Virus record (IMG/VR): IMGVR_UViG_2667527592_000010
DNA: 5,186 nucleotides
Origin: a virus
Lineage: Duplodnaviria > Heunggongvirae > Uroviricota > Caudoviricetes
Reading direction: 5' to 3' (one strand)
This document shows, piece after piece, positions 395-4,388 of the stretch. The notes beneath the pieces are model-generated. The model searched no databases and was not told the origin of the DNA. It saw only the letters and a list, made by a program, of their open reading frames with translations. A program made the translations under genes and the position numbers. Within the stretch, counting starts at the first letter, position 1; every line of letters starts with the position of its first letter.

Positions 395-2866
395 ATGAGT
401 AAAGTCTTTATTTGCGCCGCCATTCCGGACGAACAGGCAATAAAGGAAGAAGGTGCAGTTGCTGTAGCCACTGCCATTGAAGCCGGTGACGAACGCCGCG
501 CCCGTGCCAAATTTACCTGGCAATTCCTGGAGCGATATCCGGCTGCTCAGGACTGCGCTTATAAATTTCTTGTCTGCGAGGATAAACCCGGCATGCCCCG
601 CCCTGCTATCGACTCCTGGGATACCGAATATATGCAGGAAAACCGCTGGGATGAGGAATCCGCTTCCTTTATTCCGGTCGAACCAGAATCCGATCCGATG
701 AACGTCAATTTTGACAAGCTGGCCCCTGAAGTACAGAACGCTGTCATGGTTAAGTTCGGTACATGTGAAAACATCTCCGTTGATATGGTGATTAGTGCAC
801 AGGAACTGTTGCAGGAAGACATGGCAACATTCGACGGACATATCGTTGAAGCGTTGATGAAAATGCCAGAAGTTAACGCCATGTATCCGGAGCTTAAGCT
901 GCATGCCATCGGGTGGGTTAAACATAAATGTAAGCCTGGTGCCAAATGGCCCGAAATTCAGGCAGAGATGCGCATCTGGAAAAAACGTCGCGAAGGTGAA
1001 CGCAAGGAAACCGGAAAATACACGTCTGTTGTTGATCTCGCCCGCGCCAGAGCCAATCAACAGTACACTGAAAATTCAACAGGAAAAATCAACCCGGTCA
1101 TTGCTGCCACTCATCGCGAATACAAGCAGACATGGAAAACACTGGATGACGAACTGGCCTACGCTCTCTGGCCTGGTGATGTGGATGCCGGAAACATTGA
1201 CGGCAGCATCCATCGCTGGGCAAAAAATGAAGTTATCGACAACGACCGCGAAGACTGGAAGCGTATCTCGGCATCAATGCGCAAACAGCCTGATGCCCTT
1301 CGCTACGACCGCCAGACTATTTTTGGCCTTGTCCGTGAACGTCCGATCGACATTCACAAAGCCCCTGTGGCACTGAACAAATACATTACTGAATACCTGA
1401 CTACAAAGGGCGTGTTTGAAGATGAAGGAAGAAATCAGAGCGCAACTGATACTCTCTCGTCGCCAGTACCAGAAACTGATGCAGTGGAAACGGCAATTCC
1501 GGACAACGAAAAAACCGAATGCGAAGTGGAAGCCGAACCATCTGTAGAGCGTGAGGGACCGTTCTACTTCCTTTTCACCGATAAGGACGGCAAAAAATAC
1601 GGTCGCGCAAACAAACTTTCTGGTCTGGAAAAAGCACTGGCCTTGGGAGCTACGGAAATCACAAAAGAGGAATACTTCGCACGTAAAAACGGCACGCACT
1701 CAGGTTCACAACAAAATACTGGTGCATCTGACACGACCACACAACCAGAGCCGGTAAAAGTTACCGCTGACGAAGTAAACAAAATTATGCAGGCAGCCAA
1801 TATCAGCCAGCCTGACGCCGATAAGTTGCTTGCTGCCTCTCGCGGAGAATTTGTTGCAGGGATTAGCGACCCGAATGATCCGAAATGGGTGAAGGGGATT
1901 GAAACCCGCGATTCTGTAAACCAGAACCAGCAAGAATCGGAACAGAACGACCAGAAAGCGGAACAAAACAGTCAAAATGCGTTACAAAACGAGCCTGAAA
2001 CGAAACAACCTGAGCCAGTAGCGCAACAGGAACCGGAAAAAGTCTGCACCGCCTGCGGTCAGAGCGGTGGCGGCAACTGCCCTGATTGTGGCGCGGTGAT
2101 GGGCGACGCAACATACCAGGAAACATTCGATGAAGAGAATCAGGTTGAAGTTCAGGAAAATGATCCGGAGGAAACGGAAGGCGCTGAACATCCACACAAG
2201 GAGAACCCTGGCGGCAATCAGCATCACGCCAGCGATAATAAAACTGGCGAGGCGACAGATCCCTTAATTAAGGTGAATGGTCATCATAAGCTCACATCCA
2301 CCAGCAGAGCGGGGATTCATCTGATGATCGACCTTGAAACCATGGGAAAAAATCCCGATGCCCCGATTATCTCAATAGGCGCAATATTTTTCGATCCACA
2401 AACCGGAGATATGGGACCGGAATTTAGCAAGACCATCGATCTGGATACTGCTGGCGGAGTCATTGATCGTGACGTCATTAAATGGTGGCTAAAGCGATCA
2501 CGTGAAGCGCAGTCTGCCATTATGACCGATGAAATCCCGTTAGATGATGCACTACTGCAATTGCGGGAATTTATCGACGAAAACTCCGGTGAATTTTTTG
2601 TTCAGGTCTGGGGTAATGGGGCCAACTTCGACAACGTGATTTTACGCCGTTCATACGAACGACAGGGTATCCCCTGCCCGTGGCGCTACTGCAACGATCG
2701 CGATGTACGCACAATCGTTGAGCTGGGGAAAGCCATAGACTTCGATGCCAGAACTGCTATCCCATTCGAAGGTGAGCGCCATAATGCACTTGATGACGCT
2801 CGTTACCAGGCAAAATACGTTTCAGCTATCTGGCAAAAACTGATCCCGAGTCAGGCTGATTTTTAA
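395..2866 (+). CDS. Large multidomain phage nuclease (823 aa): N-terminal domain of unknown function, central block recalled as RecE (exonuclease VIII)-like, acidic Q/E/N-rich linker with a Cys4 zinc ribbon, and C-terminal DnaQ-like DEDDh 3'-5' exonuclease domain
   Basis: Single uninterrupted 2472-nt ORF with GAGG (381-384) about 10 nt upstream of ATG 395 and TAA at 2864-2866. C-terminal motifs are visible directly: Exo I LMIDLETMG (D646, E648), Exo II GNGANFDNVIL (D745), Exo III HNALDDARY (H796, D801). The central block KLLAASRGEFVAGISDPNDPKWVKGIETRD (aa 476-506) matches my recollection of a conserved block in Rac RecE; this is from memory and unverified. Confidence 0.9.
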   Translation: MSKVFICAAIPDEQAIKEEGAVAVATAIEAGDERRARAKFTWQFLERYPAAQDCAYKFLVCEDKPGMPRPAIDSWDTEYMQENRWDEESASFIPVEPESDPMNVNFDKLAPEVQNAVMVKFGTCENISVDMVISAQELLQEDMATFDGHIVEALMKMPEVNAMYPELKLHAIGWVKHKCKPGAKWPEIQAEMRIWKKRREGERKETGKYTSVVDLARARANQQYTENSTGKINPVIAATHREYKQTWKTLDDELAYALWPGDVDAGNIDGSIHRWAKNEVIDNDREDWKRISASMRKQPDALRYDRQTIFGLVRERPIDIHKAPVALNKYITEYLTTKGVFEDEGRNQSATDTLSSPVPETDAVETAIPDNEKTECEVEAEPSVEREGPFYFLFTDKDGKKYGRANKLSGLEKALALGATEITKEEYFARKNGTHSGSQQNTGASDTTTQPEPVKVTADEVNKIMQAANISQPDADKLLAASRGEFVAGISDPNDPKWVKGIETRDSVNQNQQESEQNDQKAEQNSQNALQNEPETKQPEPVAQQEPEKVCTACGQSGGGNCPDCGAVMGDATYQETFDEENQVEVQENDPEETEGAEHPHKENPGGNQHHASDNKTGEATDPLIKVNGHHKLTSTSRAGIHLMIDLETMGKNPDAPIISIGAIFFDPQTGDMGPEFSKTIDLDTAGGVIDRDVIKWWLKRSREAQSAIMTDEIPLDDALLQLREFIDENSGEFFVQVWGNGANFDNVILRRSYERQGIPCPWRYCNDRDVRTIVELGKAIDFDARTAIPFEGERHNALDDARYQAKYVSAIWQKLIPSQADF
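2306..2863 (+). other. DEDDh (DnaQ/RNase T-like) 3'-5' exonuclease domain within the 823-aa protein
   Basis: All three exonuclease motifs are present with normal spacing: D-x-E (nt 2330-2338), the FD motif (nt about 2618-2632) and H-x4-D (nt 2780-2797). Domain boundaries are approximate. Confidence 0.75.
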
Positions 2867-2881
2867 TGTTCAACCCTAATT

Positions 2882-2907
2882 GCCGCTAACCGTATATAGT
2901 TAGCGGC
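2882..2907. promoter_or_regulatory. Perfect 9-bp inverted repeat (GCCGCTAAC-N8-GTTAGCGGC) in the 58-bp spacer between the nuclease gene and the xis-like gene; candidate protein-binding palindrome or RNA hairpin
   Basis: Stem arms at 2882-2890 and 2899-2907 are exact reverse complements, with loop CGTATATA. No T-tract follows on either strand, so it is not a canonical intrinsic terminator. Confidence 0.35.
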
Positions 2908-2924
2908 GGTTATGAGATATAGCT

Positions 2925-3128
2925 ATGAGCAGCTTATTTTTAACCGAAGATGAATTGCTAATATTAACGGGCTGCAAATATGCAAGCCACCAGCGAAAAT
3001 GGTTAATGGAAAACGGGCTTCCGTTCTATACCAATCGTAGTGGCAAACCGATTGTCAGCCGGGATCTATTTACCTGCAATAAAACTTTACCACCACGCGA
3101 GGTAGAGCCCAATTTTGGTGCGATCTGA
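2925..3128 (+). CDS. Small integrase-associated protein (67 aa), DUF4224-like; putative excisionase / recombination directionality factor
   Basis: ORF lies immediately upstream of int and its TGA stop (3126-3128) overlaps the int ATG (3128-3130) as TGATG. The sequence MSSLFLTEDELLILTGCKYASHQRKWLMENGLPF resembles, from memory, the small DUF4224 proteins commonly found next to lambdoid integrases. The Xis function is inferred from position and size, not shown. Confidence 0.65.
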   Translation: MSSLFLTEDELLILTGCKYASHQRKWLMENGLPFYTNRSGKPIVSRDLFTCNKTLPPREVEPNFGAI

Positions 3129-4153
3129 TGGGAAGACGAAGGAAAAATCCTGAACACGAAAAATTACCTCCAAATGTATACCCAAATAAATATAGTTATG
3201 TATGGAAACCAACATCCAGAGAATCTGTCACACTAACCGCCATCAAGGATGGTTTAGCTGCTTTATGGAAAAAGTATGAGGAAACTGTAAATAATCGCGA
3301 TCGTGCAATGACATTCGGTCGCTTGTGGGAAAAATTCCTCGCCAGCGCCTATTACAGTGACCTTAGTCCAAGAACACAAAAAGATTATCTGCAACATCAA
3401 AAAAAGTTGCTTGCCGTATTCGGTAAGGTACCAGCGGATTCCATAAAACCAGAACACATCCGTCGATACATGGACAAAAGAGGGGAGCAGAGTAAAACGC
3501 AAGCCAACCATGAAAAAAGCAGTATGTCCCGTGTTTACAGTTGGGGGTATGAGCGAGGGTACGTGAAGGCTAACCCATGTGCAGGTGTAAGTAAATTCAA
3601 GGCCAAAAACCGCGAACGATATGTAACCGACAAAGAATACCAGGCAGTATTAAGCGTTGCACCTCTTCCTGTTTTTATCGCAATGGAAATTGCCTATCTG
3701 TGTGCAGCGAGGGTTTCCGATGTGTTATCGCTGAAATGGGAACAGATTGGAAACGACGGGATATTCATCCAGCAAGGGAAAACCGGAAAAAAACAGATAA
3801 AAGCATGGAGCCCACGATTACAGGCAGCGATCGAAAAAGCAAAACAGTTACCAAAATCTGCCTATGTGATCAGCAATCAATACGGCAACCGATATATGTA
3901 CAAAGGCTTTAACGAAATGTGGGTAGATGCAAGAAATCGTGCTGGAAAAATTTCAGGTATTTTAACCGACTTCACCTTTCATGATCTGAAGGCGAAAGGA
4001 ATTTCAGACTATGAAGGAAGCAGCCGGGATAAGCAACTTTTCTCTGGTCACAAAACCGAAGGGCAAGTGCTAATCTATGACAGGAAGGTTAAAGTTTCAC
4101 CAACACTTGATGTCCCGTTACCTGAAAATATTCCAAGAAAATATTCCAAGTAA
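3128..4153 (+). CDS. int: Lambda-family tyrosine integrase (341 aa)
   Basis: N-terminus MGRRRKNPEHEKLPPNVYP parallels the lambda Int arm-binding N-terminus (MGRRR…LPPNLY, from memory). Catalytic-region signatures are present: R195 in ARVSDVLSLKW, H285-x-x-K288, H308 and Y317 in GHKTEGQVLIYDRK. It sits adjacent to a tRNA 3' end, with GGTG 8 nt upstream of the ATG and TAA at 4151-4153. Confidence 0.93.
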   Translation: MGRRRKNPEHEKLPPNVYPNKYSYVWKPTSRESVTLTAIKDGLAALWKKYEETVNNRDRAMTFGRLWEKFLASAYYSDLSPRTQKDYLQHQKKLLAVFGKVPADSIKPEHIRRYMDKRGEQSKTQANHEKSSMSRVYSWGYERGYVKANPCAGVSKFKAKNRERYVTDKEYQAVLSVAPLPVFIAMEIAYLCAARVSDVLSLKWEQIGNDGIFIQQGKTGKKQIKAWSPRLQAAIEKAKQLPKSAYVISNQYGNRYMYKGFNEMWVDARNRAGKISGILTDFTFHDLKAKGISDYEGSSRDKQLFSGHKTEGQVLIYDRKVKVSPTLDVPLPENIPRKYSK

Positions 4154-4205: not shown

Positions 4206-4295
4206 TGGCGGAGAGAGGGGGATTTGAACCCCCGGTGGAGTTGCCCCCACTCCGGTTTTCGAGACCGGTCCGTTCAGCCGCTCCGGCATCTCTCC
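4206..4295 (-). tRNA. serU: tRNA-Ser, anticodon CGA (type II tRNA with long variable arm), intact with encoded CCA
   Basis: Reverse complement of 4206..4295 reads GGAGAGATGCCGGAGCGGCTGAACGGACCGGTCTCGAAAACCGGAGTGGGGGCAACTCCACCGGGGGTTCAAATCCCCCTCTCTCCGCCA. It has a 7-bp acceptor stem, anticodon loop CTCGAAA, a 6-bp variable stem (GUGGGG/CUCCAC with one G-U pair), T-arm GGGGG-TTCAAAT-CCCCC, discriminator G and CCA. Confidence 0.95.
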
Positions 4296-4339: not shown

Positions 4340-4388
4340 GTCCCTGTCCGTGCAATTTTGTTCAAGTGACGAGTTTGCGAGCAAAACG

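Follow-up and report, generated by a model that had tools for sequence, protein, structure and literature searches.

Between the early genes of a lambdoid prophage and its excisionase and integrase genes lies a short spacer that contains an inverted repeat. This raises the question of whether the repeat is a product of chance, a DNA site for a protein or an RNA structure, and, in the last case, what such a structure would do directly in front of xis and int. The window, by which we mean the whole stretch of 5,186 nt that was analysed, is the integrase end of the prophage, which is integrated at serU. Its + strand carries an ORF of 823 aa (395–2866 in the ORF list, with the stop codon TAA at 2864–2866), whose C-terminal domain (aa 642–813) is a Rv2179c-like 3′–5′ exo(ribo)nuclease (Pfam PF16473, E = 6e-65). 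RefSeq matches of this ORF are annotated as exonuclease or 3′–5′ exonuclease. It is followed on the same strand by a xis-like gene of 67 aa (2925–3128; DUF4224, Pfam PF13986, E = 2e-15) and by a tyrosine integrase gene of 341 aa (3128–4153; Pfam PF00589 and PF22022). The gene for tRNA-Ser(CGA), serU, is located on the - strand at 4206–4295 (ARAGORN, an Rfam tRNA match and RefSeq) and adjoins int as the prophage attachment site. Beyond serU, mtfA begins at 4350 according to the RefSeq annotation of matching loci. The exonuclease stop codon and the ATG of the xis-like gene (2925) are separated by 58 nt, and the hairpin lies inside this spacer.

The record of the phage vB_EcoM-606R7 is 99.7% identical to the window, and its genes are ordered DicA-like repressor, YdfB, YdfC, DicB, YdfD, exonuclease, xis, int and serU. 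As DicB and YdfD are annotated upstream of the exonuclease in this record, the early-left operon is of the Qin/dicB type. Within the window, the ORF at 57–314 encodes a DUF1482 protein, and a weak terminator-like hairpin, TGCCAGCAATGGCA and then GGGATTTGTT, is seen at 339–352, just 5′ of the exonuclease start. Residues ~380–640 of the 823-aa nuclease form a long acidic, Q/E/P-rich linker of low complexity, with a CxxC...CxxC motif (CTACGQSGGGNCPDCG) before the nuclease domain. The nuclease gene is annotated as two CDS in the near-identical phage record and as frameshifted in PPompW prophages, so this region seems to be indel-prone. At the other end, a sub-threshold Rfam match to the ‘Plastid-psbl-rps4 3′UTR’ (38.6 bits; gathering score 68) was found at 4209–4260 (+), opposite the tRNA-Ser. 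The same match is seen in ST64B beside a tRNA-like att region, and it is almost certainly artefactual, arising from the structure of the tRNA antisense strand.

The preliminary description of this DNA had reported a perfect 9-bp inverted repeat at 2882–2907, and direct reading of the sequence confirmed it: the arms GCCGCTAAC (2882–2890) and GTTAGCGGC (2899–2907) enclose an 8-nt loop, CGTATATA (2891–2898). Extension of the arms by a find_repeats-type procedure added the pairs T-A, A-T, A-T, T.G and T.G, that is, three Watson-Crick and two G.U pairs. This yields a stem of 14 bp on the + strand, with 2877–2890 as its 5′ arm and 2899–2912 as its 3′ arm. Ten single-stranded nucleotides, TGTTCAACCC (2867–2876, +), separate the stop codon from the foot of the hairpin. 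On the other side, the GAGA at 2914–2917 (+), judged from its sequence to be the probable Shine-Dalgarno of the xis-like gene, starts 2 nt past the stem and ends 7 nt before the ATG. The RNA of the + strand is predicted to fold stably, with a centroid energy of -20.3 kcal/mol (z = -3.2), and the hairpin is retained when it is folded in a 161-nt context. The - strand RNA reaches -18.3 kcal/mol (z = -3.3) and the hairpin as single-stranded DNA -10.9 kcal/mol. The six nucleotides ATATAG of the loop recur 22 nt downstream (TATATAG at 2893–2899 and GATATAG at 2915–2921), between the Shine-Dalgarno and the xis ATG. This duplication is kept in the O157 serU variant and is missing from the ompW and Evi types.

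An exhaustive scan of the 5186 bases bears out the earlier remark that this is the only long perfect hairpin in the window, as no other perfect inverted repeat of at least 8 bp with a loop of 3–10 nt was found. When the window was dinucleotide-shuffled 1000 times, 119 of the shuffles (12%; mean 0.16 per window) contained a perfect 9-bp repeat with such a loop. The 9-bp repeat alone is thus not significant, and we reject chance on the grounds of conservation and covariation and on no others. The hairpin has the GC-rich stem-loop of an intrinsic terminator (14 bp, ~-20 kcal/mol). A T-tract 3′ of the stem is absent on both strands, the + strand reading TGAGATAT and the - strand GGGTTGAA, and a terminator scan made no call at the hairpin. 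This agrees with the original view that it is not an ordinary intrinsic terminator. Searched against Rfam at E <= 1, the window and eight related loci gave no match at the hairpin.

To assess conservation, IMG/VR was scanned for the last 19 nt before the hairpin, and with further loci this gave at least 124 copies of the exonuclease 3′ end. Among the matches listed, a hairpin was found at the same position in 122 of 124 prophage copies. The same matches comprise 26 distinct downstream variants, 25 of which carry a hairpin with predicted energies of -15.6 to -23.1 kcal/mol; the lone variant without it (L093) is an isolated fragment of the exonuclease gene end. The hairpin stands upstream of at least four different downstream sequences (xis/int modules), two of them from non-homologous excisionase families, namely DUF4224 as in the window and the lambda-type Exc of ompW-integrating prophages. 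When five loci with different downstream modules were aligned, a GC-rich inverted repeat was seen in the same place each time, with a differing sequence. A search of IMG/VR with the 14-mer formed by the loop and 3′ arm found the hairpin only after the exonuclease gene, and the matches elsewhere were chance matches without a hairpin. Conservation in related prophages, the lack of which the preliminary description had named as part of what would refute its reading, was thus found: a hairpin is at the same position and shows compensatory changes.

By BLAST, 4078 of 5426 complete E. coli genomes and dozens of phages contain the exonuclease 3′ end. Of the downstream modules, the serU-type was found in 1102 E. 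coli genomes and the ompW-type in 1721; among the carriers are O157:H7 and further Shiga-toxin strains. In E. coli, either of these xis-int modules practically always comes with the exonuclease gene. BLAST homology of the exonuclease 3′ end mostly ends at window positions 2874–2876 (query positions 275–277), which is the foot of the hairpin. A segment of 48 nt from the end of the nuclease gene (2827–2874), which stops at this foot, also occurs alone in other contexts, for example inside a gene annotated as a YdaT-family toxin (H70) and beside a HTH repressor-like ORF (L093). This solitary fragment looks like a recombination scar at a mosaic junction. In one E. coli genome (NZ_CM132302.1, hit H110) only the hairpin and the next 21 nt (2877–2933) were matched, at 100% identity and with no gene annotated, which suggests a truncation or insertion just inside xis.

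Base pairing was evaluated in 22 distinct Escherichia variants. In their alignment, 90.8% of the cells are standard-paired, compared to 19–72% when the 3′ partners are slid. Four of the 13 pairs are altered on both sides (alignment columns 13-44, 21-36, 17-40 and 12-45): A-U and G-C alternate at 13-44 in a ratio of 13:9, C-G and U-A at 21-36 in a ratio of 18:4, and 17-40 occurs as C-G, U.G and U-A. The covariation score was matched by 0 of 500 shuffles, a statistic that overstates independence, as the 22 variants share descent. In the ten core pairs, every one-sided change is U.G or G.U on the + strand and none is A.C. About ten independent transitions keep the pairing of the sense RNA and about two, both at helix ends, keep that of the antisense RNA instead; the bias thus rests on some ten independent substitutions, and C→T mutation favouring the non-template strand could inflate it. 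One-sided changes restricted to G.U on the + strand point to an RNA helix rather than a DNA operator. With regard to sequence, GGCGGCG of the 3′ arm is the best-conserved part across the variants, and next to no variation is seen in the TATA that makes up the 3′ half of the loop (columns T29, A30 and A32 invariant, T31 >90%). The 3′ arm begins with G in most variants and with T or A in a few. On this comparative evidence, the repeat is an evolutionarily maintained RNA stem-loop, predicted to form in the sense transcript.

Hairpins are also found after homologous exonucleases in other Enterobacterales. One genome per species was scanned with the nuclease domain, which gave 61 loci from many genera, of which 59 distinct ones were analysed. 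In the 70 nt past the nuclease stop codon the median best local fold was -16.1 kcal/mol, compared to -8.2 to -11.3 kcal/mol in controls (Wilcoxon p = 1e-8 to 2e-5), for which windows within the gene or 250 nt downstream were used. At 32 of the 59 loci the spacer wholly contains a hairpin of -12 kcal/mol or better. In loci that have no hairpin, about a third of all, the spacers are mostly short and of the coupling type; about a third of these are 34–45 nt long, with the fold excluded by the criteria used. The median distance from stop codon to stem is 10 nt, and that from stem to next start is 11 nt (29 other loci), with the Shine-Dalgarno within it. None of the 32 spacer hairpins is followed by five or more T within 8 nt of the stem (mean 1.5 T). 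When the best fold was chosen independently for each strand at the 59 species-level loci, the + strand was better at 32 and the - strand at 12 (p = 0.0015). As the G+T fraction in this test was 0.50, there is no G+T composition bias.

The sequences of these hairpins fall into at least five unrelated classes. Class A, GCCCGG-GTGCAG-CCGGGC, is the commonest elsewhere, has a stem of 6–7 bp and also occurs in Salmonella phage ST64B and in coliphage mEp460. Class B reads ATGGCCC-N4-6-GGGCCAT, class C has long stems of the CCAGCCGGTTAC type, class D is the Escherichia type of this window, and class E reads GTCGCCGGTTG...CAACCGGCGC. In about 19 class A loci, ranging from Salmonella to Erwinia (L127:1764-1800, L126:1762-1795 and L196-L248), a 14-nt core, CCGG-GTGCAG-CCGG, is invariant. 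Together with a conserved ATGGAG Shine-Dalgarno downstream, the class A hairpin is found in front of four excisionase-type families that are unrelated to one another (Exc, DUF4224, PrtN-like and an unassigned family of 68 aa). It is thus part of the nuclease cistron, at its 3′ end, and does not belong to any particular xis. The preliminary description had placed the repeat where regulation of xis and int would be expected. Its position in the spacer between nuclease and xis holds, and the regulatory link does not follow from it, since class A tracks the exonuclease 3′ end across these four families.

What we infer from these observations for the function is tentative. We put at a little short of an even chance that the hairpin is a non-terminating intercistronic stem-loop that serves as a decay barrier, a translational insulator or both. 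It has the features of a stabilising or insulating element, being a stable sense-strand stem-loop in an intercistronic spacer whose structure is kept rather than its sequence. The stem-loop would form in the + transcript of the early-left operon (Qin-like: dicB, ydfD, exonuclease, xis and int) and would constitute the 3′-terminal element of the exonuclease cistron. Since a U-tract is absent, it would not release RNA polymerase. It would rather act post-transcriptionally and, through its structure, insulate the early genes from xis-int. As a barrier, it would let 3′→5′ exonucleolytic decay from the unprotected int/att/host side consume xis-int and halt before the upstream early genes, which would result in a short-lived xis-int segment and protected upstream early messages. 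As a translational block, it would keep the terminating ribosome from the xis ribosome-binding site, so that xis would initiate de novo, uncoupled from translation of the exonuclease. The leading edge of a ribosome extends ~10 nt beyond the stop codon.

Several observations sit less easily with a barrier or insulator. The conserved loop TATAGT, TATATT or TATAAT resembles a -10 hexamer. Because about a third of the loci have no hairpin, the element is dispensable. A generic decay barrier needs no conserved loop, so the loops conserved within classes, TATA here and GTGCAG with the invariant CCGG/CCGG core in class A, hint at a sequence-specific trans factor that the barrier model leaves unexplained. 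The invariant class A loop in particular suggests that it may be recognised sequence-specifically. It is conceivable, if distinctly unlikely, that the class-specific loops are sites for a phage or host RNA-binding factor, and that the exo|xis stem-loops form an undescribed family of cis-regulatory RNAs which would time Xis and Int synthesis and prophage excision. One candidate for the loop-binding factor would be the adjacent Rv2179c-like 3′–5′ exoribonuclease, which might trim transcripts back to its own hairpin. If true, the recognition of the loop would make the element an upstream counterpart of lambda sib retroregulation.

The barrier or insulator reading has to be weighed against others. 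It is unlikely that transcription stops or pauses at the hairpin, weakly or conditionally, after the early-left genes. In that case the element would correspond in position to lambda tL3 and would restrict read-through into xis-int, except where RNA polymerase was modified or closely trailed by a ribosome. Such a role would fit a stable GC-rich hairpin right after the last early gene, given that lambda tL3 lies ~85 nt past exo, and it would fit the conservation on the sense strand; leaky expression of xis-int would presumably harm the lysogen. However, hairpin-dependent release by E. coli RNA polymerase requires a U-tract, and neither this hairpin nor any of the 32 homologous spacer hairpins has one. 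Moreover, no N-like antiterminator gene is annotated between the repressor and exonuclease genes of the near-identical phage, and a real terminator would thus shut off xis-int.

The preliminary description had also suggested a dimeric protein operator, which the present data disfavour. In its fullest form this reading takes the repeat as a DNA element, a palindromic operator of a dimeric regulator overlapping an activator-dependent xis-int promoter with TATAGT of the loop as its -10 hexamer. The loop hexamer reads T-A-(T/C)-A-(G/T/A)-T in all 22 Escherichia variants, with A2 and T6 kept and TATAAT in L007. Inverted repeats around a -10 hexamer are a classic repressor layout, and a start ~7 nt downstream would yield a short xis leader that includes the Shine-Dalgarno. 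We nevertheless consider it very unlikely, first for want of the other promoter elements: a -35 hexamer is absent at 16–18 bp (AACCCT), there is no extended -10 TG, and a promoter scan was silent. No lambda CII-type TTGC-N6-TTGC was found in 2860–4153, and its count over the window is that of chance. Second, the arms covary with no half-site sequence kept, their asymmetries are of the G.T type on the + strand only, and they are 12–14 bp long with centres 17 bp apart. In other genera the same slot is occupied by unrelated hairpins without a -10-like loop. Finally, a promoter 5′ of xis would express Xis along with Int, an output that is wrong for integration.

The suggestion that the hairpin is a site for RNase III, or another endonuclease, which would part the xis-int mRNA from the early-left transcript, is highly doubtful. 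In its favour, the element is double-stranded as RNA and belongs to a dicB-type operon, the DicF RNA of which is reportedly made by RNase III- and RNase E-dependent processing. Lambda int is controlled through the RNase III site sib, and an AU-rich single-stranded stretch lies 3′ of the stem. The usual substrate of RNase III extends over about two helical turns, and the enzyme is deterred by strong G-C pairs in the recognition boxes (antideterminants). The stem, however, is 14 bp and very GC-rich here and 6–7 bp in the widespread class A, short of the ~20 bp of two turns, and it has no conserved internal loop or bulge.

We find it quite improbable that the hairpin has no regulatory function, being a linker or recombination junction at a mosaic boundary, or the decaying remnant of an old terminator, kept by descent. 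The exact break of inter-prophage BLAST homology at the foot (2874–2876), the 48-nt fragment found alone elsewhere (H70 and L093) and the third or so of loci without a hairpin are all consistent with it. On the other hand, the compensatory double changes and the G.U-only intermediates indicate selection for pairing, and unrelated hairpin sequences in the same slot of many genera argue for convergence on a structure, not for inheritance of a linker.

The remaining candidates can be dismissed briefly. An attenuator, which had been named at the outset, is unsupported, as there is no U-tract, alternative pairing or leader peptide. Recoding at the T5 run by the stop codon (GATTTTTAA), with the hairpin 10 nt on, was rejected because the -1, +1 and readthrough frames all stop within 4–11 codons. 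An upstream small ORF with its ATG at 2912, at the foot of the stem, has 13 codons here and 2 in the Evi-type variant and is thus not conserved. A REP/BIME element would be dispersed in many copies, while this hairpin is found only after the exonuclease gene and without an Rfam or repeat match. The nut boxB of lambdoid phages has a 5-bp stem, a GNRA-like pentaloop and a boxA, and HK022 put is a two-stem structure just downstream of pL/pR; here the stem is 14 bp with an 8-nt loop, several kb from the repressor region and without an Rfam match. The prophage sRNAs HnrS, AsxR and AgvB are encoded in late or moron regions, and K-12 DLP12 exoD-xisD cannot serve as a model locus, since exoD is a homologue of lambda Exo and not of this nuclease.

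Searches of the literature on tL3, on exonuclease/excisionase stem-loops, on EcOnc prophage sRNAs, on terminators upstream of xis and on DUF4224 yielded nothing on this element. The hairpin appears to be unannotated so far and to have no Rfam family; in kind, it is a familiar intercistronic stem-loop. Prophages with this junction are extremely common in E. coli and require the xis-int genes immediately 3′ of it for their excision. Should the stem-loop set the ratio or timing of Xis/Int relative to the early genes, it would be a small and mutable point at which prophage stability and induction are controlled. If it is merely a generic decay barrier, it would be ordinary operon housekeeping. The locus is also a clean example of an RNA with conserved structure and divergent sequence exactly at a mosaic module boundary.

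As a barrier or insulator, the element can be compared to several known systems. One group comprises the stabilising hairpins of malE-malF (REP), Rhodobacter puf and papB-papA, which are likewise stable GC-rich sense-strand stem-loops within an operon, in a short spacer after a stop codon, without a U-tract and with structure kept over sequence. In contrast to these, the present element is not a REP and not repeated in the genome, and its loop is conserved within classes, which a pure barrier would not require. The stem-loop of the ompA 5′ UTR and insulators of ribosome-binding sites resemble it as hairpins a few nucleotides 5′ of a Shine-Dalgarno, and after an upstream cleavage it would protect the 5′ end of xis-int in the same manner; the ompA structure, however, is at a transcription start, whereas this one is intercistronic. 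Lambda tL3 shares the position, directly after the ‘exonuclease’ of an early-left operon and before the region toward xis-int. It is a canonical intrinsic terminator, GGCTGGG-tattt-CCCGGCC followed by TTTCTGTT, whereas the present element has no U-tract. The two have no sequence similarity, and the adjoining genes are non-homologous (lambda Exo and the Rv2179c-like 3′–5′ exonuclease, respectively). With lambda sib, finally, it would have in common an RNA hairpin that sets the effect of 3′→5′ decay on xis-int mRNA relative to other genes, and the same decision on Int/Xis timing. Sib is located downstream of int, past attP, and promotes decay as a target of RNase III that spans about two helical turns. 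The element described here is located 5′ of xis, its stem is shorter and richer in GC than a typical RNase III site would allow, and its effect would be to restrain decay.
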